From positions 3,069 to 67,068 of IMG/VR virus record IMGVR_UViG_3300020577_008405: a DNA stretch of 64,000 bases; one strand, written 5' to 3'. Each line of letters starts with the position of its first letter. Within the stretch, counting starts at the first letter, position 1. Made by a program: the position numbers and the translations under genes. Of this stretch, positions 4,682-60,273 are shown piece by piece. This DNA is from a virus. Lineage: Duplodnaviria > Caudoviricetes. Below the pieces are notes generated by a model, which was given only the letters and a program-made list of their open reading frames with translations, did not search any database and was not told where the DNA came from.

Positions 4682-4754
4682 GTTCTTGTAGCTCAGTGGT
4701 AGAGCAGGCTGCTAGAGATGCAGCCGGTTGTGGGTTCGAGTCCCTCCAAGAATC
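4682..4754 (+). tRNA. Atypical tRNA with 9-nt anticodon loop
   Basis: Acceptor GTTCTTG/CAAGAAT, D-arm GCTC-AGTGGTA-GAGC, GGCTG-CTAGAGATG-CAGCC, T-loop TTCGAGT. Confidence 0.75.
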
Positions 4755-4855: not shown

Positions 4856-5545
4856 ATGAGTGATGCTAGAAAAGCTGTTTGCAAATACTGTCAAACAAAC
4901 CTTATTTGGAACTGGAATTTCTTTTCAAAAGAACCTATTCTTACAAATGAATTTGGTCATCATCACGATTGTAAGGGTCATGCACAGGATGTCTTTCCTG
5001 GTTGGTGTAAGAAATGTAACGCCCCTGATCTTGTTTGGATTCGTAAGAACCATCAAATGGAACTTACTGAGGCGTATGGATTACCTCATACTTGCGAGCA
5101 AGATCAAGTTATTGAAGACATATCAGCTGCAAAATGCTTGCACTGTAAAACTAATGGATTATTGTGGCTTAATGTTTTAGGTAAATTTACATTAGTTAAT
5201 ACTAATGGAGAGAAGCATTCATGTGCTGAATATACTGCTTTTGCCACTGATTGGGCTGAAGCAAAACGCATTAACTATGCACTTGAAAAGAAGTGGTTGA
5301 AATCTATTCCTGATGGCACAGAATGCAAAAAATGTAATGGCAGAGGCTTTACATCTTATCTTAGTAATAATAAAAGATTGTGGAAGAAATTTAACTCAAC
5401 CGAACCGATTACCGTTGTAAAGCGTTGTTTAAAATGTAAACAACTTGGTACTTTTACAAAAAGTAAAAAGCAATTTTATCTTAGACAACTTAGAAGGAAG
5501 TATTGGCCATATAATGGTGCTTATCATAAGTGGAAAAATCACTGA
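4856..5545 (+). CDS. Multi zinc-finger protein
   Basis: Three CxxC...GxxHxC repeats plus CKKCNGRG/CLKCKQLG. Confidence 0.75.
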   Translation: MSDARKAVCKYCQTNLIWNWNFFSKEPILTNEFGHHHDCKGHAQDVFPGWCKKCNAPDLVWIRKNHQMELTEAYGLPHTCEQDQVIEDISAAKCLHCKTNGLLWLNVLGKFTLVNTNGEKHSCAEYTAFATDWAEAKRINYALEKKWLKSIPDGTECKKCNGRGFTSYLSNNKRLWKKFNSTEPITVVKRCLKCKQLGTFTKSKKQFYLRQLRRKYWPYNGAYHKWKNH

Positions 5546-5820
5546 TGAAAAAGAAAAATCTTCTTAAGACTCGCGATCACCTTATGGTTAAGGTGATTAA
5601 TGGTGTTACTAAGGCTGGTATCCATAAGGATCATAAGAAGGAAGCTAATAAGCGAGCTTCTCGTTCTAAAGTAGAAATTGAAGATGAAGAAGTTTGTCTT
5701 TGGTGTACCTTTCCCTATAAGGACTATCCCTTACCAAAGGATACATCTGAGCAAGTAGCTAGAGAATTGGGTTATTGTTCTATTTCGTGCCTCGAAATGG
5801 ATAGCGATACAAAAGACTAA
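5530..5820 (+). CDS. Hypothetical protein (C-terminal Cys pairs)
   Basis: ORF; CLWC...CSISC. Confidence 0.55.
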   Translation: MEKSLMKKKNLLKTRDHLMVKVINGVTKAGIHKDHKKEANKRASRSKVEIEDEEVCLWCTFPYKDYPLPKDTSEQVARELGYCSISCLEMDSDTKD

Positions 5821-13233: not shown

Positions 13234-14370
13234 ATGAAGCCCTCTAATATTAAGGCAGTTCTGGACCTCGCTCTCAAGGCGAATGAAATTAATGAAGTCG
13301 TTAACCCGATGTTTACGGGCGACGCTGGACTTGGTAAGTCACAGATCGTTCAGCAGTGGGTTGAGGATGTGCGGGCGAAGGACCCTGAGTTTGGGTTTAT
13401 CGATCTTCGCATTGCTTACCTGGAGGCACCTGACCTTATCGGCTTCCCCGAGACTGGTAAGGACACCAACGGCCTCGAGCGCACGATGCACCGTCTTCCT
13501 GAGTTCTGGCCGACTTCTGGTCGCGGCCTGATTCTGCTCGAAGAGCCCAATCGTGGCACGACGGGCGTCATGAACTGCCTCATGCAGCTTCTGACTGACC
13601 GCAAGGTGCACAACTACAAGCTTCCGCCCGGTTGGATGATTGCTGCGTGTGTTAACCCGGATTCTTCCGAGTACGATGTTAACACGATGGATGCTGCTCT
13701 CAAGGATCGCTTTGAGGAATTCGAGGTTGAGTACGACGCTCTCACATTCATGGAGTTCATGGAGCAGAAGGGCTGGGATGCCAACATTCAACGCTTCGTT
13801 GGTAACGGTGTTTGGATTTATAAGACGCCCAAGGAACTTGGTCAGAATGGCAAGTACATCTCACCTCGTACTTGGAGCAAGGTGAATGCTGCCGAGCGCG
13901 CTGGTATGAGTCAGAACAATCGAATGCTCCACCGCATTACGGTTTGTGGCATCTTGGGTAAGGACATTGGCAACGAGTATCATTCGTATTGCTTCGATCA
14001 GGCTCCGGTTACCGCTCAGGAAATTCTCAAGGACAAGAAGGGAGCATTCAAGCGGCTCAAGGAACACTGTTCGCAGGACAGCTACCGCGGCGATATGATT
14101 CCTGTCACGGTTGATTCCATCATCAAGGCTTACGGTGGTAAGAAGGACAAGTGCACGGCAGAGCAGATTGATGAGGATACGATGGTGGAGGTTGCCAAGA
14201 TTATCCCGGCTGATCAGACTGCCAACCTCATTAAGGGGTGCGGCTATGCAGTTGCGAAGGGTCGCATGTCGGACTTCCTCAATCAGTTCGTTAAGGATCA
14301 CCCTGAGCTCATCAACATCATGAAGAGCAACATTAAGGTGAGTCGCGCAACTGGTGTTGACAAGAAGTAA
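13234..14370 (+). CDS. MoxR-like AAA+ ATPase
   Basis: Walker A GDAGLGKS, Walker B LLEEPNR, MDAALKDRF; AGGAG RBS. Confidence 0.9.
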   Translation: MKPSNIKAVLDLALKANEINEVVNPMFTGDAGLGKSQIVQQWVEDVRAKDPEFGFIDLRIAYLEAPDLIGFPETGKDTNGLERTMHRLPEFWPTSGRGLILLEEPNRGTTGVMNCLMQLLTDRKVHNYKLPPGWMIAACVNPDSSEYDVNTMDAALKDRFEEFEVEYDALTFMEFMEQKGWDANIQRFVGNGVWIYKTPKELGQNGKYISPRTWSKVNAAERAGMSQNNRMLHRITVCGILGKDIGNEYHSYCFDQAPVTAQEILKDKKGAFKRLKEHCSQDSYRGDMIPVTVDSIIKAYGGKKDKCTAEQIDEDTMVEVAKIIPADQTANLIKGCGYAVAKGRMSDFLNQFVKDHPELINIMKSNIKVSRATGVDKK

Positions 14371-14386
14371 GAAGCAAGTTGTTTAA

Positions 14387-14423
14387 GATTCACTAGTGGG
14401 ATTGTTGGCGCCACTAGTGAATC
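14387..14423. terminator. 13-bp hairpin after AAA gene
   Basis: GATTCACTAGTGG / CCACTAGTGAATC; no strong U-tail. Confidence 0.5.
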
Positions 14424-14486
14424 ATCAATTTCGCTTCTATGCTTGTAGTAGTGACGCCATAAACGATCTTTTAAGATTGACTTTAT

Positions 14487-14555
14487 TTGGGGCTAGCTTA
14501 AACTAGAGCGGGTGGCTTGTTACTACCAGGTTCTGGCTGAATCCAGAGCGCCGAA
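14487..14555 (+). tRNA. Degenerate tRNA-Thr(TGT)
   Basis: GGTGG-CTTGTTA-CTACC arm; 6-nt T-loop CTGAAT; G-G mismatch in acceptor. Confidence 0.55.
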
Positions 14556-14585
14556 TAAAAGTGAATCACAGATTAGGCGCCACTC

Positions 14586-14664
14586 TCCTAATTAGTTTAA
14601 TGGCAAAACGTAGTTGTAACGTGGAGTTACAACTGAGTTGAAGGTTCGATTCCTTCGTTAGGTG
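14586..14664 (+). tRNA. tRNA-like RNA with 10-bp anticodon stem
   Basis: TCCTAAT/GTTAGGT, GTTT-AATGGCA-AAAC, TAGTTGTAAC-GTGGA-GTTACAACTG, GAAGG-TTCGATT-CCTTC. Confidence 0.7.
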
Positions 14665-14873
14665 ATTATGTCTATATATCCTGTTACAGCAGATGAAGAG
14701 GAAGTACGTAGCGTTTATCACATATTATCTAAGGTTTTACGTCTGTTACGCGATATGGTGAAAGTTATTTTGATGGTCTTTTTATTGTAGGTAAATGGAA
14801 GAAAGCTCAAAAACAATTAAAGATTTCGAATGGTGAAATAAACCACTAAGTAGTAGTTTTCATTGGAGAATAA

Positions 14874-15221
14874 ATGAGTTATTCGATTGTTACCGTAGTG
14901 TATGGTGTTCCTCTTAATGACGATTGCATCGACTTGATCAATAAGTGGGAATCTGATACTAATGACGATAAGTGGTTCGAAGATGATGATGGAACTTGTG
15001 GTTTTACTACTCTTTATTCTGCCAGTGGTCCTCACAATGGATATTGTGGGGTTGAACTGGATACACTTGAATCTTATGGCAATCAGCTTGTTAGTGAAGT
15101 TCGAATGATTCCAACTGAGACTGAAATTAAAGAAGCTACTGCTCGTCTCGACAAGCTCCATCCTGAACTTCGCAGCAAGGTTGGTCCTATTGGCGTTTAC
15201 TTTATCTGGAGTGATTCATGA
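14874..15221 (+). CDS. Hypothetical acidic protein
   Basis: GGAG RBS. Confidence 0.7.
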   Translation: MSYSIVTVVYGVPLNDDCIDLINKWESDTNDDKWFEDDDGTCGFTTLYSASGPHNGYCGVELDTLESYGNQLVSEVRMIPTETEIKEATARLDKLHPELRSKVGPIGVYFIWSDS

Positions 15222-15888: not shown

Positions 15889-17283
15889 ATGTCATCGCGC
15901 CTTAGAGGAAAGCTGGAAAAAGACCTTCTTGACAAGGAATTTGTTCCGGTTGAAGTAAAGAGTCAGTGTCTTTCTACAGTAATTTATGAGTGTTGCACGA
16001 AGACACACCAGTTTATGGGTGCTGTGCTGCAAAGTCTCACTATCAATTATAGTCATCAGCTGCCCACTGCAGGCATTCTGTTCAATACGGATGCCAAGCA
16101 CTGGGAAATGCTTATCAACCCATACTTCTTTTGCCGCAAGCTCAATGCTGAGCAGCGCAAAGCAGTGTTGCTCCATGAGTTGAGCCACATTCTCCACAAG
16201 CATCCGCTTCGCGTTCCGTTTCTTAAAATTGCGATGCGTAAGCGTGTTCTGATGAACATTGCGGCTGATATGGCTATCAATCAGTTCATTAAGAATATCC
16301 CTGATGGTTGTCCGCAGTGTACGCCTTATGACCCGGACCATCCGGTGCCTTGCCCGAATGAGATGTGCCCTGGTCGAGGTATCTTCTTGCGGGACTTCTA
16401 TGACATTGATGATAAGACTAAGGCTCGTATTCCGTGGAAAGCTAATCAGACCATGGAGCATTATTACGAGAAACTGCTTACTCGCTTCGAAGATCCTGAT
16501 GAAGATAAGGATGGAGAAGGTAATGCCGGTGGTGGTGCTGCAACCGGCGATCTTCCTCAGACCATTGATGAGCATCTTTGGGACAATGGCGCGGTTGAAG
16601 AAAAAGACATGCTGGATGCCACTGAGGAGTTAGCGAAGCGTGCGATGGTGAAGGCACGTCTTGATTATGACTCTCTGCCAGGTTCAGTGCGTGAACTTCT
16701 TGAAGACATTAAGTCGCGCCGAGCTGAGCTCAATTATAAGCAACTTATTATGTCGGCAATGAAGCGACATGCGTCAGGACACGATCGTGACTTCACCTGG
16801 ACTAGACCGTCTAAGCGATATGGAAATAAAGCGCGCGGAACTAAAGTTGGACAGTTGCCTAAGCTTCATAATTTTATCGACACGTCTGGGTCTATTTCAA
16901 TTGAAGAAGCCAACGGCTTCCTTGACGTTGTGGACCAATTCCTTCGAGTCGGTAGTCGCAAATGTGACTTGGGATTCTTTCACACCGAACTTTATAAAGA
17001 TGACAAGTATAAAATGGGTACCAAAGTTGCCCGAGAAGACATTCAAAGCGGTGGAACTGATCTCACACCGGTAATGAAGCGAATTCTGGATCAGAAGCCT
17101 GATTTGAGTGTTATTCTCACTGATGGATGCTATGGTGACGTGCGTTGCGAGGAATGGATGAAGCCTGGCGAGAAGTTCCCTCAGGTTCTCTTCGTTATCT
17201 CCAAGGATGGCACGACTGATCACCCGTTGAAAAGATTCGGCGAAACAGTTAAGATACCTGATTCAGCTACGTTTAAGAAGTAA
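15889..17283 (+). CDS. Metallopeptidase-like + VWA domain protein (DUF2201-type)
   Basis: LLHELSH, AADMAINQ, MIDAS DTSGS, GGT, TDG. Confidence 0.9.
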   Translation: MSSRLRGKLEKDLLDKEFVPVEVKSQCLSTVIYECCTKTHQFMGAVLQSLTINYSHQLPTAGILFNTDAKHWEMLINPYFFCRKLNAEQRKAVLLHELSHILHKHPLRVPFLKIAMRKRVLMNIAADMAINQFIKNIPDGCPQCTPYDPDHPVPCPNEMCPGRGIFLRDFYDIDDKTKARIPWKANQTMEHYYEKLLTRFEDPDEDKDGEGNAGGGAATGDLPQTIDEHLWDNGAVEEKDMLDATEELAKRAMVKARLDYDSLPGSVRELLEDIKSRRAELNYKQLIMSAMKRHASGHDRDFTWTRPSKRYGNKARGTKVGQLPKLHNFIDTSGSISIEEANGFLDVVDQFLRVGSRKCDLGFFHTELYKDDKYKMGTKVAREDIQSGGTDLTPVMKRILDQKPDLSVILTDGCYGDVRCEEWMKPGEKFPQVLFVISKDGTTDHPLKRFGETVKIPDSATFKK

Positions 17284-23196: not shown

Positions 23197-23679
23197 ATGG
23201 ATCCACTAAGACACGTAAAGTTTTTTGCTACCATTAAACATGCTGGCCAGGCATATTCTGGCGGTTTGCCATATACACATCATTTGGCAGCTGTCGAACA
23301 AGTTCTACGGCGTTTTAATATTGCTGATGAAAACTTGCTAATGGCGTCTTGGTTGCATGATGTTGTTGAAGACACAGAAACCAAGTTGAAAGAGATCGAA
23401 GAAATGTTTGGTTCAGAAGTTGCTCGACTTGTTGGTGCTGTAACAAATGAAGAAGGCGTCAACCGGAAGACACGCAATGCTCTTACTTATCCAAAGATTC
23501 GCAATAACGGTGAGAAAGCAATTCGACTTAAGTTAGCTGATCGCATCGCGAATGTTGAAACTGGTGGTAATTTAGTTGAAATGTATCGCAAGGAATATGA
23601 AGACTTTAAGCGCGCCTTGTATACGCCAGGTCAAGCAGAGGACATGTGGGGACATCTAGATCATCTACTGAACAAGTAA
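23197..23679 (+). CDS. Stand-alone RelA/SpoT-type HD hydrolase (small alarmone hydrolase-like)
   Basis: HAGQ...PYTHHL, WLHDVVEDT, KLADRIAN. Confidence 0.9.
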   Translation: MDPLRHVKFFATIKHAGQAYSGGLPYTHHLAAVEQVLRRFNIADENLLMASWLHDVVEDTETKLKEIEEMFGSEVARLVGAVTNEEGVNRKTRNALTYPKIRNNGEKAIRLKLADRIANVETGGNLVEMYRKEYEDFKRALYTPGQAEDMWGHLDHLLNK

Positions 23680-23849
23680 CAGTAGGAATTATAAAGGTAA
23701 TGTACCTGTTGAAATTAGCGTATGTTAAGGAATATAAAGTTCCATATTTCAATGCGCTAAATAAATTAAGACGACTAATAGAACGCACTAAAAAGGCAAG
23801 AAGGAAACAATTACATGAGCACACACCGAGTCGAAGTGGTAAAGATTGA
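23646..23849 (+). CDS. LxL-motif microprotein (divergent; start uncertain)
   Basis: IIKVMYLLKLAY. Confidence 0.45.
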   Translation: MGTSRSSTEQVTVGIIKVMYLLKLAYVKEYKVPYFNALNKLRRLIERTKKARRKQLHEHTPSRSGKD

Positions 23850-24963
23850 TGCTGTTGAGAAACACCCTAATGCTGATAGGCTTGAATTAGCAAAGATTGA
23901 GGGATGGCAAGTTGTTACTGGAAAGGGTAATTTCCAAGCTGGCGATCTTGCACTCTATATCCCTGTAGACTCAATTCTGCCAAACTCACTCGAACTGCGT
24001 TTATTCCCACCTGGATCTAAGATCACTCTTAAGAAGGGTCGTATTCGCTCAATTAAGATTCGTGGTCAGATGTCGCAAGGGATGATTATTCCGCTTAGTG
24101 ACGTCGAGCAAGAAGTTGCTGCCACTTGGGATGGTAAGTCCAAGTTGCCTAAGTATACTGTTGGACTAGATCTTGCAGGAATGCTTAACATCACTAAGTA
24201 TGAGCCGCCTGAAGTTTCTGAACCGCAAACGATGCGGACTAAGAAGGCTAGCAAGAATCAGATCAATCCTAACTTCAAGAAGTATACTGATATTGAGAAT
24301 ATCAAGTGGTATTCTGACATCTTCCAAGAAGGTGAGATGGTATATATCAGTGAGAAGCTGCATGGAACTTCCGCTCGATACGGATATGTTCCTCGTCATT
24401 ATGAGGGTTTTCTAGCACCCGTTAAAACTGCCATTATGAGCTTTTTGGCGAAGTGGGGCGTGATTAAGTCACACCAGTTTGTTTATGGTTCACGTAATTG
24501 CCAACTTCAGACTGGCTCCAATAAGAGTTGGTACTCTGAGGATGTTTACACGAAGATTCTCAATCAAGAAGACATTAAGGCTAAGTTACAGCCTGGTGAA
24601 TGTGTTTACGGTGAAATCGTTGGTCATAATATTCAAACGAATTACACGTATGGCTGTAAGGAAGGCGAGCATCTCTTCTTTGTTTATGATGCAATGGTAG
24701 ATGGAAAGTGGCTTGATTTTCCTGCACTTGAGCGTTGGTGCGGTCGTCGTGGTTTTACTATGGTTCCCAAGCTGTATGTTGGTCCTTGGAGCCAGGAAGT
24801 TCACATGAAGCATCGCGATGGTGATTCGACTATCGGTGGTCAGAAAATTCGTGAAGGAGTTGTTATTAAGCCTGTCGTTGACCAAGACTCCATTTGCGGT
24901 CGGAAAGTGCTAAAGAGCATCAGTGATGCGTACTATCTCGAAGAAAACACCGATTTTCATTAA
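23815..24963 (+). CDS. RNA ligase, DRB0094/Rnl5-like with N-terminal OB domain
   Basis: HPNADRLE, EKLHGT, VYGEIVG, FFVYD, REGVVIK. Confidence 0.9.
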   Translation: MSTHRVEVVKIDAVEKHPNADRLELAKIEGWQVVTGKGNFQAGDLALYIPVDSILPNSLELRLFPPGSKITLKKGRIRSIKIRGQMSQGMIIPLSDVEQEVAATWDGKSKLPKYTVGLDLAGMLNITKYEPPEVSEPQTMRTKKASKNQINPNFKKYTDIENIKWYSDIFQEGEMVYISEKLHGTSARYGYVPRHYEGFLAPVKTAIMSFLAKWGVIKSHQFVYGSRNCQLQTGSNKSWYSEDVYTKILNQEDIKAKLQPGECVYGEIVGHNIQTNYTYGCKEGEHLFFVYDAMVDGKWLDFPALERWCGRRGFTMVPKLYVGPWSQEVHMKHRDGDSTIGGQKIREGVVIKPVVDQDSICGRKVLKSISDAYYLEENTDFH

Positions 24964-25087
24964 AGATAGTGCTGACCATCTAGTTGCGTTTGCGAACACC
25001 CTATTAAAGTTATTCCCGCAAATAACTAAGTGGGATTTGTATACTATCGAAATCATTCGTTTTAGTAAAAGGTGGAGTTCTGATTAA
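24926..25087 (+). CDS. Microprotein, LFP variant (53 aa)
   Basis: MRTISKK...FANTLLKLFPQ. Confidence 0.5.
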   Translation: MRTISKKTPIFIKDSADHLVAFANTLLKLFPQITKWDLYTIEIIRFSKRWSSD

Positions 25088-25112
25088 AAATAAAGATAGA
25101 ACTGAACAAATT

Positions 25113-25238
25113 ATGAATGGCGGACTTTACTTTAATCGTTTCTTTTGGGTACTTGCTGCCTTGTTTCCTAAGCATGATGTTTGGTATGAACAGCTTTCAG
25201 CAGACGAGATTCGCTTAGCTTCAAAACGAAATGTATAG
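25113..25238 (+). CDS. Microprotein, LFP variant (41 aa)
   Basis: MNGGLYFNR-FFWVLAALFPK. Confidence 0.55.
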   Translation: MNGGLYFNRFFWVLAALFPKHDVWYEQLSADEIRLASKRNV

Positions 25239-25266
25239 TGTATATTAGTTTTTAAACGAGAACAAA

Positions 25267-26280
25267 ATGAACCAACCATTAGTCAAAATGATGTTTGGAA
25301 GTCATGTTTATGGAACTGCGCTTCCGACTTCTGATAGAGATTTCAAGGGGCTCTTTCTTCCCGATGCTGAATCGCTAGTGATGCAGCGAGCAGCCAAGCA
25401 TTTGAATAATTCTACAAAGAAGAATGATTCAGTACGAAATACAGCAGAAGACGTTGATGATGAAATGTTCTCATATCAGACTTACATGGAACTTATTCGT
25501 CAAGGTCAGACTGTCGCATTAGATATGTTGTTTACTCCGCAGCAGTTTTATTGTGCCGATGTTGTTGTAAGTCCATATTGGCGCGAAATCGTTGATAATG
25601 CAAGTAACCTTATTCACAAGGGAACTAATGCTTTTGTCGGATATACGAAAGCACAAGCGTCTAAATATGGCAACAAGGGCGATCGCCTTGCGGCTTTAAA
25701 TCTCTTCATGAATGTTATGAAGGATTGGGATGGACGCAAGGAGCTTGGCGAATATGCTACTGAAATTACTGCACTCTTAAAATCAATTAATCCTAAAGAA
25801 GCTGAAATAGTCTTAATTCCTTCTCCTAACGGCTTAAACGAAACTCGCGATGTACCCCACCTATCCTTAGCTAATAAGAAGGTAGGTTATACTTGCTCAG
25901 TGGAATATGCACGTCAGGTATGGCAGTTAGCTTTAGATAAGTATGGACATCGTGCAAGACTTGCCGAATCCAATGAAGGAATTGATTGGAAGGCTACTAT
26001 GCACGCAGTTCGTATTGCAGCAGAAGCAAAAGAACTTCTTCTTACTGGCCATATTACATTTCCACGGCCAGAAGCGCTTCTGCTTCTTGCAATTCGTCAA
26101 GGCCAATTACCATATAAGCAAGTCGAAGAACTAATTGATCAAGGATTAATGGATATTAAGGAGGCAGAGCTTAAATCCCATCTTGCCAATAAACCAAATT
26201 ACGAACTTATGGAAAGCCTTGTTTCTAAGGCTCATTGGTCAGTTATTCATGAGCAAACTCTACTCATGAACCGCTTCTAA
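25267..26280 (+). CDS. Pol-beta superfamily nucleotidyltransferase
   Basis: FGSHVYGT..TSDRDFKG; C-terminal KATMHAVR helix. Confidence 0.85.
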   Translation: MNQPLVKMMFGSHVYGTALPTSDRDFKGLFLPDAESLVMQRAAKHLNNSTKKNDSVRNTAEDVDDEMFSYQTYMELIRQGQTVALDMLFTPQQFYCADVVVSPYWREIVDNASNLIHKGTNAFVGYTKAQASKYGNKGDRLAALNLFMNVMKDWDGRKELGEYATEITALLKSINPKEAEIVLIPSPNGLNETRDVPHLSLANKKVGYTCSVEYARQVWQLALDKYGHRARLAESNEGIDWKATMHAVRIAAEAKELLLTGHITFPRPEALLLLAIRQGQLPYKQVEELIDQGLMDIKEAELKSHLANKPNYELMESLVSKAHWSVIHEQTLLMNRF

Positions 26281-30542: not shown

Positions 30543-30699
30543 AAAACTATCTCGTCGTGATCAGCATTCTTGGATTGATGTTATGGATAGTTATCTTATG
30601 TTCTGCTGTAAACTTAATCTTATTTCAAGCGAATGTAATGCAGCTTGTTGGGATTTTGTGGTTGATAAGTATTTAACAAAGGCAAGAAAATATGACTGA
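30529..30699 (+). CDS. LxL-motif microprotein (56 aa)
   Basis: YLMFCCKLNLIS; overlaps orn start. Confidence 0.6.
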   Translation: MKDFKKLSRRDQHSWIDVMDSYLMFCCKLNLISSECNAACWDFVVDKYLTKARKYD

Positions 30700-31213
30700 T
30701 TATCTTTGGGCTGATTGTGAAATGACTGGGTTGGACAATAAAAACTGTCGAATTATCGAAGTTGCATGTATCCTCACTAAGGACGATCTTGTTCCTTATA
30801 GTCAATTTGAAGCTATTGTTTATCAAAATCCGCACGTTGGATGGGAACAAGTAGCTAAGGAAATGCATAAGAAGAGTGGTCTTTTTGATTTAATTCAAAA
30901 CGAAGGATTAGACGAGCGTGGTGTAGTTGCTGAACTTGTGTTTTGGCTTAAAGGCAATGTTGGTACGAATTTAGTTAATCTTGCTGGCAATTCTGTTCAC
31001 TTTGATCGTGGTTTTCTAATTGAACAATGGCCGGAAATTAAGCCCTTTTTGTCGCATCGTCATCTTGACGTTAGTTCATTCAAGATTTATGCAGAAGGAC
31101 AAGGAATTAAGAAGTTTAGTTCCACCTTGCCTGCTCATCGAGCTATGGATGACATTGAACACTCGATCAAGGAGTTTAAGTATTACTTAAGTGAATTAAA
31201 GAAGCTCCCATAA
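30692..31213 (+). CDS. orn: Oligoribonuclease (DEDDh)
   Basis: WADCEMTGLD, AGNSVHFDRGFL, HRHLDVSS, HRAMDDI. Confidence 0.9.
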   Translation: MTDYLWADCEMTGLDNKNCRIIEVACILTKDDLVPYSQFEAIVYQNPHVGWEQVAKEMHKKSGLFDLIQNEGLDERGVVAELVFWLKGNVGTNLVNLAGNSVHFDRGFLIEQWPEIKPFLSHRHLDVSSFKIYAEGQGIKKFSSTLPAHRAMDDIEHSIKEFKYYLSELKKLP

Positions 31214-31221
31214 GGAACAAC

Positions 31222-31728
31222 ATGACAACAGTCCTTACATCTTTTCTTATATCTTTAGTTCCTTTAGACATGAAAGTGTCTACTTGGCCACTCGAAGGTA
31301 TGAATGGAGAACTTAATAATATTGCTTACATGGAGTCATATTATGGGACTTATGTCAACCATGAACCACATGTTCGTGGAGCGTTTCATACTGCTTTTGG
31401 TTCGCTAGGACTAAAACCAGTTACTGCTCATGATCAGTATTTGAAGTCCCCAAGACTTCAAAAGCAATTTCCGGGTCTTCAAGATGAAAAAGTTTTCTTG
31501 CAAGAGTTTTGGCGCAATCGTTTACTTTATGTGCAATGTGCCAACTTTCATTGGTATTATTTACGATCAGTGACACCTACATTAGCGAGAGCTGTTTATT
31601 CTTGGCGATGGGGTTTGACTGCTTCTAATAATGCAACAGATGAGCAGATTGCAACTGATTCATATACGGCTAAATATGCCATACTCACGCAACGATATAT
31701 CGATGCAAGAACCATCTCCAAGCGTTAA
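31222..31728 (+). CDS. Hypothetical protein, possibly lysozyme-fold
   Basis: AAGGA RBS; IAYMES resembles the SLT catalytic Glu motif (weak). Confidence 0.5.
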   Translation: MTTVLTSFLISLVPLDMKVSTWPLEGMNGELNNIAYMESYYGTYVNHEPHVRGAFHTAFGSLGLKPVTAHDQYLKSPRLQKQFPGLQDEKVFLQEFWRNRLLYVQCANFHWYYLRSVTPTLARAVYSWRWGLTASNNATDEQIATDSYTAKYAILTQRYIDARTISKR

Positions 31729-31861
31729 TGGTATATATCCACCATACTTAGCTTATGCATATTTAATTAACTTTTATTGGACTCTTCATACATTAAAGTT
31801 AATGTCAGATTCTGTTTTTACTTTAGCTAAGCAAAAAGTGTTTGAAAAATATTTATGGTAA
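31703..31861 (+). CDS. LxL-motif microprotein (about 52 aa)
   Basis: FYWTLHTLKLMS. Confidence 0.6.
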   Translation: MQEPSPSVNGIYPPYLAYAYLINFYWTLHTLKLMSDSVFTLAKQKVFEKYLW

Positions 31862-32877
31862 CTCTACTTACAAGAGACGAATTTCGCAATGGTGTATTTG
31901 CTCGTGATGGGCATAAATGCGTTATTTGTAAACTACCTGCTCAAGACGCTCATCATATTTTAGAGCGACGACTTTGGCCTGATGGTGGATACTACTTAGA
32001 TAATGGAGCAAGTCTTTGTGGTGAACATCATATACAAGCCGAACAGACTACTCTAAGTTGTCCTGAAATTCGTGAGAAAGCGGGTATTGCTAAGATAGTA
32101 TTACCACCTCACTTATATCGTGATCAAGAGTATGACAAGTGGGGAAACCCTATTCTCCCTAATGGAACTAGGTTAAGAGGTGATCTTTTTTCTGATGAGA
32201 GCGTGCAAAAGATTCTGCAACCTGTTTTATCACTTTTCACGCATCACGTCAAATATCCAAGAACCTATCACGTCCCCTGGTCACCAGGAATGACAAAAGA
32301 TGATAGGGCCATGCCTACGGATGGGCCCTTTATTGGACAAGAAGTAGTGGCAACTCTTAAGATGGACGGAGAGAACACAACTATGTATCGAGATTATGTT
32401 CATGCTCGATCATTAGTTTATGAGCCCCATCCATCAAGAAATTGGGCAAAAACTATTCATAGTCGGATTAGCCATGAAATCCCCGAAGGTTGGAGGATTT
32501 GTGGAGAGAATCTAGCAGCAGTTCACAGCATTGAATACAAGGATCTTCCTAGTTATTTCATGATTTTTAGCATTTGGAATGACAAGAATATTTGTCTTTC
32601 TTGGAAAGAAACAGTTGAATGGGCTCAACTTTTAGACCTTCCAACTGTGCATGATTTTTGGCAAGGTACATATAACAATGAAGGATATGGAATCCGTGAA
32701 GCGTTTAGTAACAATTACGCTTCTACTCATGAAGGATATGTGATTCGACTAGCTGGATCCTTTCCTTATTCTGAGTTCCGTAAAAGTGTAGGCAAGTATG
32801 TGCGTAAAAACCATGTACAAACTCATGGGCATTGGATGCGGCAAGTAATGCGGCTAAATGGTTTAGCTAATGCCTAA
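31855..32877 (+). CDS. HNH-domain / ATP-dependent RNA ligase fusion
   Basis: CVIC..DAHH..NGASLCGEHH; KYPRTYH, KMDGEN, CGENL, EGYVIR, KYVR. Confidence 0.85.
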   Translation: MVTLLTRDEFRNGVFARDGHKCVICKLPAQDAHHILERRLWPDGGYYLDNGASLCGEHHIQAEQTTLSCPEIREKAGIAKIVLPPHLYRDQEYDKWGNPILPNGTRLRGDLFSDESVQKILQPVLSLFTHHVKYPRTYHVPWSPGMTKDDRAMPTDGPFIGQEVVATLKMDGENTTMYRDYVHARSLVYEPHPSRNWAKTIHSRISHEIPEGWRICGENLAAVHSIEYKDLPSYFMIFSIWNDKNICLSWKETVEWAQLLDLPTVHDFWQGTYNNEGYGIREAFSNNYASTHEGYVIRLAGSFPYSEFRKSVGKYVRKNHVQTHGHWMRQVMRLNGLANA

Positions 32878-56776: not shown

Positions 56777-56849
56777 CGATCTCTAAGAGAATTGAACTCT
56801 TATTTACTAGTTGAGCAAACTAGTCGCTCTACCGTTGAGCTAAAGAAGC
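56777..56849 (-). tRNA. Atypical tRNA-like gene with 9-nt anticodon loop
   Basis: GCTC-AACGGTA-GAGC, ACTAG-TTTGCTCAA-CTAGT, AAGAG-TTCAATT-CTCTT; weak acceptor. Confidence 0.6.
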
Positions 56850-59019: not shown

Positions 59020-60273
59020 TCACTCTCGAGTGGGAGTATTGATAGCCTCGATGAGAAGATTATACTTTAGGTAATCTAGAACCTCTAAAGAAGTTCCGGA
59101 AAATATCGCAACACTTTGTGCGCGCCTATTAATCGCTATAATGCGACTATCACTCAATGCGGTTCCTGTTCCCCTTTGCTTCAAACGTTCAAGCACAGTT
59201 TCCTTTGTTTCAATAACAAAAATTGGCTTGATATCGAACTTGTCAGTATTTCGTTTAATGAAAGTAGAAATGCCAATCGACAAATCATAAATTAACGGTT
59301 TATTGAGTTTACTAAGTTTTAGCAGTTCATCTACATGGCTCTTTTTATCTGCAGAATCTGATGACAAATAAGACACATTGTTTAGCTGATTACATATCCA
59401 TGACTTACCAGAACCCGATACTCCGCATATTAGATACAATATTGGTTTAGTAACTAAAACCTCATCTTTATATTTCCATGTTAAACCGCCAGCGCTTTTA
59501 TATCGGCCTTGAATATTCTTAATGATAGAGGATCCTGGGCAACCAACAGTGCTAGCTGCTTCCTTAATAGAAGGAAATTCCCTACCATCACTAGCAATAA
59601 CCTCCTTTTGTTGAGTTTTATAAAACTCGGCCATTTTAGCCTGAGTCTCAGGAGAATTGAGCGAGGTTTTTACCGCCAATGAAATTTGCTTCTTAAGCTC
59701 ATCTGTAGTATTTGCTTTAGCTCTTTCTGATGCTGCTTGTCGATGCTCAGGATCCGCCCAGTATTCTTTCCGTTTTTCACTAATATTAGTTCTAAAGTCT
59801 TCGTCTTCCCACATTGCTTTCGATTGCTCAGAGCGAGCAATGGCAAGCTGAGGATCAGTTTTAAATCGCTGCTTATGTGAAGAAGACATTTTGGCTCTAA
59901 CTTCTTCAGGCACAATGGCTCCGAGTTTTGCTTGTCGCATTTTTTCTATTGTCTCCGGAGCAAAGAAATGTCCATTTCCTCCTTCTTTTAAATTGTAACC
60001 ATTGGGAGATAAAGTATTTCGACTTTCAATAAAGAACCTTTCAAGTTTATCTAATTCATCCTGAGAAGAAGCTTTAGCTAATTCTTCAATAGAAAAATTC
60101 TCTTCTCCATATTTCTTAATAGCATCTCTAATTGCCTTACAACCAGAACTTGGAAAAGTATGTTCTATAAATCGTTGTTCTAAATCTCTTATTGTTTGAC
60201 CAATATAAACTTTATTATTGAGCTTATTAGTTATCTTATAAATAATCATAGAGCAATTATACCCCACAATCAT
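59020..60273 (-). CDS. GIY-YIG/NUMOD3 homing endonuclease fused to P-loop kinase-like domain
   Basis: IIYKITN..NKVYIGQT, NGYNL; CGVSGSGKS. Confidence 0.85.
   Translation of the reverse strand: MIVGYNCSMIIYKITNKLNNKVYIGQTIRDLEQRFIEHTFPSSGCKAIRDAIKKYGEENFSIEELAKASSQDELDKLERFFIESRNTLSPNGYNLKEGGNGHFFAPETIEKMRQAKLGAIVPEEVRAKMSSSHKQRFKTDPQLAIARSEQSKAMWEDEDFRTNISEKRKEYWADPEHRQAASERAKANTTDELKKQISLAVKTSLNSPETQAKMAEFYKTQQKEVIASDGREFPSIKEAASTVGCPGSSIIKNIQGRYKSAGGLTWKYKDEVLVTKPILYLICGVSGSGKSWICNQLNNVSYLSSDSADKKSHVDELLKLSKLNKPLIYDLSIGISTFIKRNTDKFDIKPIFVIETKETVLERLKQRGTGTALSDSRIIAINRRAQSVAIFSGTSLEVLDYLKYNLLIEAINTPTRE

Follow-up and report, generated by a model that had tools for sequence, protein, structure and literature searches.

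What does a phage do with an RNA that has the body of a tRNA and, at the anticodon position, a long hairpin? We addressed this question at a locus of an uncultured phage of ~170 kb, known from a 67,068-nt IMG/VR record (39% complete by CheckV). Positions 3069-67068 of the record were analysed, and this whole stretch of 64,000 nt is called the window below. Of its relatives, the closest complete one is a phage of 172.6 kb that has direct terminal repeats. The DNA of the window itself recurs in metagenomes of rivers, wastewater and activated sludge (12 studies). A nucleotide search of cultured phages gave zero matches. By ATPase protein, the nearest cultured phages were <31% identical, so the phage has no annotated relative.

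The features of the locus are collected in Table 1. Every gene between 12761 and 35903 lies on the + strand, and we found no terminator-like site in the interval from the ATPase gene to the focal RNA. The 115-aa gene is followed by a 205-aa gene and then by a DUF2201/VWA gene (15889-17283). The RNA-repair gene set comprises an HD_4 domain protein, an RlaP nucleotidyltransferase, an RNase T-like exonuclease and two RNA ligases, one of which carries a PHA02142 OB / tRNA-binding-type N-domain. This set suggests that the phage faces host defences cleaving RNA or tRNA.

Table 1. Coordinates of the focal RNA, its neighbours and other features of the window
Feature	Position	Strand	Basis or remark
tRNA with a textbook body	4682-4754	+	
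MoxR/CobS-like AAA ATPase gene, upstream	13234-14370	+	PHROG 1297, E = 4e-48
Plain hairpin with 18-nt arms, cassette copy 1, right after the ATPase gene	14382-14428	+	Inverted repeat I1, 89% complementary
Long stem AAGATTGAC...GTGAATCAC, extends the acceptor of tRNA-like #1	14470-14571	+	Direct repeats D1, D4
tRNA-like #1 (weaker)	14486-14556	+	ARAGORN, at relaxed threshold only
Focal tRNA-shaped RNA (tRNA-like #2)	14585-14665	+	Rfam tRNA, fold, model R1, acceptor covariation
Anticodon-position hairpin, TAGTTGTAAC-GTGGA-GTTACAACTG	14611-14635	+	Sequence, fold, pair table
Shine-Dalgarno-like AGGTGA, then TT, then ATG	14660-14670	+	Within 3' acceptor strand and discriminator
Small ORF, 40 aa, ATG at 14668 (3 nt past the focal RNA)	14668-14790	+	
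115-aa gene, downstream	14874-15221	+	Query for fetching related loci
RNA-repair gene set	23197-26280 and 30692-32877	+	
Atypical tRNA(GCU)	56777-56849; relative L105 1451-1524	-	

Architecture of the focal RNA and its neighbours

The focal RNA scored 37.9 bits against the Rfam tRNA model (RF00005; gathering threshold 29), with 15 nt inserted in place of the 7-nt anticodon loop. Its acceptor stem pairs TCCTAAT (14586-14592) with GTTAGGT (14657-14663) and contains a U1.U72 mismatch, a U7.G66 wobble and an extra C(-1):G73 pair (C14585:G14664). The dinucleotide TA leads into a canonical D arm (14595-14609; GTTT-AATGGCA-AAAC) in which G18G19 is present, and G26 follows at 14610. Beyond the anticodon position lie a variable loop, AGTT (14636-14639), and a canonical T arm (14640-14656; GAAGG-TTCGATT-CCTTC, GGTTCGATTCC) whose loop fits GTTCRANYC. 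The discriminator is G, followed by ATT; CCA is not encoded.

At the anticodon position we observed a hairpin of 10 pairs that ends in a 5-nt loop, GUGGA; its first pair is U.G and the remaining nine are Watson-Crick. The single-strand minimum-energy fold of the RNA was the cloverleaf (-25.6 kcal/mol, z = -4.1; 0 of 200 shuffles equally good). In its score, 7-pair acceptor stem, D arm and T arm, the focal RNA is like a canonical tRNA. It lacks the 5-6-pair anticodon stem, 7-nt loop, U33 and anticodon of one. In known working tRNAs the anticodon stem has 6 pairs at most (PMC7609411). Because a 10-pair stem with a 5-nt loop can present no anticodon, the focal RNA is unable to decode. The sequence-only reading had described a 'perfect 10-bp anticodon stem' between normal D and T arms. 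Both arms are canonical by sequence and the ten pairs are present; the word perfect is too strong, given the U.G wobble at the first pair and a C.A mismatch in one relative (L078).

ARAGORN called a tRNA-Arg(ACG) at 14585-14665. We rejected this assignment: its stem had to be forced, including G.G and G.U pairs, and the call further needed a long extra arm. A tRNA-Arg label placed by tRNA finders on the focal gene would skew codon-usage and host-prediction analyses.

Upstream, the weaker tRNA-like #1, which an Rfam search at E <= 5 did not recover, has an acceptor stem of 8 pairs and a T loop of 6 nt, and its anticodon loop reads CTTGTTA. It was kept in L078 with a compensatory C-G to T-A change in the acceptor. 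The loops of its homologues are mostly non-canonical (8 nt in L001, CTTTCAA in L087, CATTTAA in L088). We observed that a hairpin cassette is repeated here, its second copy being the long stem that bears tRNA-like #1 at the tip, and that the region 14371-14700 folds into strong structure (z = -5.5). The cassette might serve as a processing stem or be mobile. Its ends are conserved as TTTAAGATT(C/G)AC...GT(G/C)AATCAC, also in L001 and L024; L024 carries two plain cassette copies and zero tRNA-likes at 5144-5295. A sigma-70-like promoter inside tRNA-like #1 (14477-14504) was discarded as chance level, with 6 such sites found against 5.3 expected.

Conservation of the RNA and of its locus

We used the upstream ATPase gene as a synteny anchor (27 related loci) and gathered loci via the downstream 115-aa gene from Logan, ENA and JGI assemblies. 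A covariance model (R1) was built from the acceptor, D and T stems alone. R1 matched 12 distinct relatives at 47-102 bits, and the position was shared by 12/12: ATPase gene, tRNA-like #1, tRNA-like #2, small ORF, 115-aa gene, ~205-aa gene and DUF2201/VWA gene. The L077 copy was identical to the window RNA. A metagenome pattern scan placed the L078 copy within a 160-kb contig, where the RNA was identical to that of the window at 77/79 positions and the flanks at about 81%.

Other relatives do not carry the RNA. It was absent from the site in L001, L024 and L002 (90-92% ATPase identity). In L001 and L024 (92% ATPase identity) tRNA-like #2 was missing entirely, and it is therefore dispensable for the neighbouring genes. 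The focal RNA was also absent from two close relatives, G001 and G002, and an R1 search of the more distant ATPase loci L003-L026 gave no copy. Exact-pattern scans of IMG/VR with the hairpin or with the conserved arms of the family returned zero matches, or L002 only.

The deeper relatives (L087, L088, L091, L096, L097, L102 and L002) retain the acceptor, the invariant GATTAGTTTAA at the start of the D arm, and the T arm. Their anticodon-position hairpins are dissimilar and span 14-31 nt. We observed 4+4 pairs with a 6-nt loop in L091, 6+4 pairs in L097, 5+2+4 pairs in L096, 5+2 pairs in L002, and 3-4-pair hairpins with 6-8-nt loops in L087 and L102; the anticodon-position region of L088 is ~35 nt. 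A 7-nt loop with U33 occurs in none of these deeper relatives, and the Rfam tRNA model does not reach them. Because their hairpins are unrelated, the constraint is on possessing a hairpin and not on an anticodon. The trait of the family is a tRNA body plus some hairpin, and it lies outside every Rfam family. A Gly-type tRNA-like of an unrelated phage (L058 2103-2189, - strand) was rejected, its fold being no better than shuffles (z = -0.9). L058 is a 59-kb contig with a tRNA cluster; the anticodon region of its tRNA-like is as long as that of the focal RNA, with 33 nt from D arm to T arm and not 25.

Covariation was assessed first in the acceptor stem. Across 12 sequences, both partners vary in five of the eight pairs, and pairing holds in 88% of cells. 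The acceptor covariation score was 0.246, compared to 0.03-0.14 in slid registers, and was reached by no shuffle. The ancestral acceptor stem was likely a perfect TCCCGAT/ATCGGGA. The window lineage carries double substitutions at acceptor pairs 4 (C-G to U-A) and 5 (G-C to A-U); in L085 and L086 this stem contains a C.A mismatch.

The hairpin was compared within the close clade, which consists of the window, L078, L083/X16, L085, L086 and the X17 contig variant. At pair 1 we found U.G, U-A or C-G, and at pair 2 A-U or G.U. The X17 variant shows double compensatory changes at pairs 3 (G-C to A-U) and 4 (U-A to C-G). Pairs 5-9 and the loop are constant except for the one C.A mismatch in L078, and pair 10 is C-G or U.G. 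The distal hairpin (14615-14631) is otherwise unchanged in the close clade, with 17/17 nt identical in both L085 and L086. Across positions 31-72, which take in the distal hairpin, the variable loop and the T arm, 38/38 are identical in L085 and 37/38 in L086. The flanks of these two copies are 55-78% identical to those of the window (78% in tRNA-like #1, 55-70% in the remaining segments). X17 is labelled 'RNA-Seq' and possibly derives from DNA. It contributes a single 197-nt contig over 14492-14673, confined to the two tRNA-likes, which served solely as a source of sequence variants; such contigs are uninformative on transcription or ends. Coverage by X19, an RNA-library run, was confined to 14764-14880.

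Since the proximal pairs covary and the distal part is invariant, the proximal stem is constrained as a structure and the distal hairpin as a sequence. We conclude that this is very probably a gene for a non-decoding tRNA-shaped RNA that is kept by selection. Gene conversion near a homing-endonuclease site could inflate identity without selection; L002 carries a GIY-YIG homing-endonuclease ORF (about 5160-5800) between the ATPase gene and the tRNA-like.

The proposal of the sequence-only reading that the structure is under selection was borne out: pairs 1-4 vary in the close clade and still pair, with two double compensatory changes, and the acceptor covaries in 12 relatives. It had named a lack of compensatory changes as a refutation, and we instead found hairpin pairs 3 and 4 doubly compensated. 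Its view that the RNA is non-decoding agrees with the 10-pair stem and 5-nt loop, and with a canonical loop in none of the relatives. Nothing in the analysis pointed to mimicry that acts on the ribosome or EF-Tu. The proposed class of three lengthened anticodon arms, with the genes at 4682 and 56777, had to be redrawn. Both of these genes have a normal overall length, a 6-pair stem and a 7-nt loop. The class consists instead of the locus family of related phages plus tRNA-like #1, which had gone unnoticed.

Two drawings of the 4682 tRNA are possible: six stem pairs that close the loop UAGAGAU, with A in place of U33, or five stem pairs and a loop of 9 nt. Neither G001 nor G002 yielded a homologue of it. 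The 56777 tRNA has a 6-pair anticodon stem, U33 and the anticodon GCU; its variable loop is 4 nt, and a long Ser-type arm is absent. In its G001 homologue, six of six pairs have changed (ACTAGT/ACTAGT vs TTCGCA/TGCGAA), with stem and loop kept. Because the stem and anticodon were kept through six pair changes, it looks like a working atypical tRNA; by this comparison it is probably a conserved, non-standard, working tRNA. Similar to the focal RNA, the 56777 tRNA and its G001 relative have an ORF start right after them and a ribosome-binding site in the acceptor strand. tRNAs with a 6-pair anticodon stem keep the 7-nt loop and an anticodon, unlike the focal RNA with its 10 pairs and 5-nt loop, and are the better comparison for the 4682 and 56777 genes.

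The small ORF next to the focal RNA was followed through the family. An ATG lies 2-7 nt past the discriminator in 11/12 members, and the acceptor strands contain the Shine-Dalgarno-like sequences GGGAG, GGTGA, GAGAG or GGGG. A 7-nt gap leaves the window ORF with 40 aa, compared to 63 aa in close relatives; run X16 has the insertion ACGTTTA behind 14747 relative to the window. Full-length homologues reach 100-111 aa (L088 2199-2501, L102 880-1215). We found no Pfam or PHROG family match for the small ORF, whose product belongs to a conserved family of unannotated proteins. The protein has an N-terminal FxxFMKxxRxLxLxxxxEYGL motif, which matches the 'microprotein' family from the first reading of the genome, and full-length forms end in CRGCGNKxDxCRCRRK.

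Possible roles of the RNA

Our best overall explanation, with a probability of about 0.45, is that the focal RNA is a selected non-decoding tRNA-like that acts as a transcript-processing element. The upper body of a tRNA (acceptor, D and T arms) has been retained, and the anticodon arm has been swapped for a stable hairpin that varies in length and sequence from one phage lineage to another. We tentatively suggest that the tRNA body is a handle for host tRNA-processing enzymes: RNase P may cut the 5' end, and RNase Z, RNase E or an exonuclease the 3' end. In the style of t-elements or mascRNA, the focal element would thereby split the co-directional transcript and separate the ATPase gene from the small ORF. 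Folding of the tRNA-like and cutting at its 3' side could silence the small ORF, or leave it almost no leader, because its ribosome-binding site sits in the acceptor stem. The long hairpin may keep the L-shape rigid and bar the RNA from translation.

The focal RNA has what a processing signal would need, a tRNA-like acceptor/T-arm body with no functional anticodon arm. A place at an mRNA boundary is predicted for it from the DNA sequence, with co-directional neighbours and an ORF just past its end. Sequestration of a Shine-Dalgarno sequence in a helix has been described for several T4 genes (PMC3014915). The ATG beside the tRNA gene could be accounted for by tight gene packing alone. Against a role in processing only, the invariance of the distal hairpin is not needed by a pure processing signal and points to a reader of the hairpin.

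Such a reader is central to a second explanation, a stable tRNA mimic acting in trans, which we consider possible and on the whole unlikely. The body would give stability and end-processing. The hairpin UUGUAAC-GUGGA-GUUACAA would be displayed to a phage or host protein, or the whole RNA would titrate an enzyme that binds tRNA, or a tRNA-cleaving defence nuclease for which the body is the recognition feature. An invariant distal hairpin sequence, next to a proximal stem and acceptor that covary, fits sequence-specific recognition. The heavy investment of the phage in RNA repair (two RNA ligases, RlaP, HD domain, RNase T-like exonuclease) also favours a mimic. Engineered tRNA scaffolds with a hairpin for the anticodon arm are stable and processed in bacteria (PMC3753655), phage tRNAs counter anticodon nucleases (PMC10264068), and T4 rnaC, of similar build, is a stable RNA (PMC3014915). 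On the other side, the window has no second copy of the hairpin or complementary target; the 15-nt hairpin core gave one match elsewhere in the window, with 3 mismatches, and a total of 2 lies within chance expectation. The hairpins of the deeper relatives are unrelated, so the ligand would have to change by lineage, and nucleases that read the anticodon loop would miss the focal RNA.

The loop contains GGA, and good substrates of RegB have GGA unpaired and the following G paired (PMC3014915), as in the focal loop. The idea of a RegB substrate was rejected, because no RegB family match was found in G000, G001 or G002; this absence of a RegB homologue despite the GGA also weighs against the mimic. 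The processing and mimic readings are compatible with each other and not mutually exclusive. That the RNA is a natural tRNA scaffold, its lineage-specific invariant hairpin serving as ligand or decoy for a protein in a phage-host conflict over tRNA, seems to us possible but rather unlikely.

We also considered whether the locus is a decaying pseudogene, in which a former Gly-type tRNA took up a small palindromic insertion and survived without function by chance or hitch-hiking. Its D arm, TAGTTTAATGGCAAAAC, recurs unchanged in many phage tRNA-Gly genes, the acceptor has mismatches, the RNA is missing from some close relatives and the adjacent ORF is truncated. However, the element is conserved far above its flanks and shows compensatory changes in two stems. 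The fold also recurs at the same site although the neighbouring protein is only ~70% identical, and a neutral 80-nt stretch would be unrecognisable at that level. These data make decay improbable.

A DNA-level element is more improbable still. The palindrome TTGTAAC-N5-GTTACAA would then be an operator or a homing-endonuclease target within tRNA-derived sequence, as could be suspected from its perfect, sequence-invariant 7+7 inverted repeat and from the homing endonucleases active in the region (the L002 GIY-YIG ORF and the gene at 59020-60273), like segB in T4. However, G.U and U.G are tolerated at pairs 1, 2 and 10, which indicates RNA pairing and not DNA symmetry. The palindrome occurs nowhere else in the window, and the covarying acceptor, the D arm and the T arm would be left unexplained. 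The window endonuclease gene lies on the - strand and adjoins the capsid gene; together with the L002 GIY-YIG ORF, it parallels segB within the T4 tRNA cluster.

We give almost no credence to a decoding tRNA made by removal of a tiny insert, in which excision of 8 nt (UGGAGUUA) at the canonical 37/38 position would produce the loop GUAACGC, containing U33 and an AAC anticodon. The case for it is the arithmetic: the 15 nt enclosed by the five proximal pairs could shrink to a 7-nt loop that has U33. Against it, the helix is fully paired and thus has no bulge-helix-bulge motif or 3-nt bulges, a group I intron core takes about 200 nt or more against 8 extra nt here, the insert is perfectly paired to the supposed anticodon in pairs that covary as a stem, the unrelated arms of the relatives yield no common anticodon, and we know of no bacterial or phage system that splices such inserts.

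Known analogues and significance

The preferred reading, a non-decoding tRNA-like that would act in transcript processing, resembles two eukaryotic systems. The mascRNA / MALAT1 3'-end module has a tRNA-like body beside an mRNA end, and RNase P and RNase Z are its presumed nucleases. Plant-mitochondrial t-elements are tRNA-like processing signals with the same two presumed nucleases (PMC1920247). Like the focal RNA, t-elements and mascRNA combine an acceptor and T-arm body with no usable anticodon, beside an mRNA end. They are organellar or nuclear RNAs of eukaryotes with demonstrated cleavage, whereas cleavage of the focal RNA is only predicted. The focal distal hairpin is invariant in sequence, a feature unneeded in pure processing signals of this kind. 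The engineered tRNA scaffolds of Ponchon and Dardel (PMC3753655) share with the focal RNA a foreign hairpin in place of the anticodon arm on a retained acceptor/D/T body; they are man-made, whereas the focal RNA is natural and conserved.

The closest known analogue is T4 species 1 RNA (rnaC), by likeness of build and not by descent. Similar to the focal RNA, rnaC is phage-encoded and lies among tRNA genes and the GIY-YIG homing endonuclease segB; rnaC and rnaD are the small stable RNAs that end the T4 tRNA cluster. It is non-decoding and has no assigned role (PMC3014915). In our fold of rnaC (L108 2909-3047, - strand; z = -4.6), a canonical T arm (CCGGG-UUCGAAU-CCCGG) follows a 10-pair anticodon-position hairpin. 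On this modelled fold, rnaC would also be a hairpin-substituted tRNA-like. A search of the T4 tRNA region with R1 found the true tRNAs and gave rnaC 6.7 bits, for the T arm only, which indicates no sequence homology. In contrast to the focal RNA, which is 79-81 nt long with a normal D arm and G18G19, rnaC is 139 nt long, a long hairpin replaces its D arm, and no ORF abuts it in the same manner.

In the literature, we found no description of non-decoding phage tRNA-shaped RNAs as a class. If the natural-scaffold reading is true, the focal RNA would belong to a widespread, undescribed class of non-decoding phage tRNA mimics, and T4 rnaC, unexplained for 50 years, would join the same class. The focal family and T4 rnaC suggest that phages repeatedly turn tRNA genes into hairpin-bearing tRNA-shaped RNAs. 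With its ~80-nt length, its natural compensatory variants and a ribosome-binding site in the acceptor stem, the family is a tractable test case. It allows a direct test of whether these RNAs are processing and translation-control modules or decoys, and the result could hint at a role for the T4 stable RNAs.
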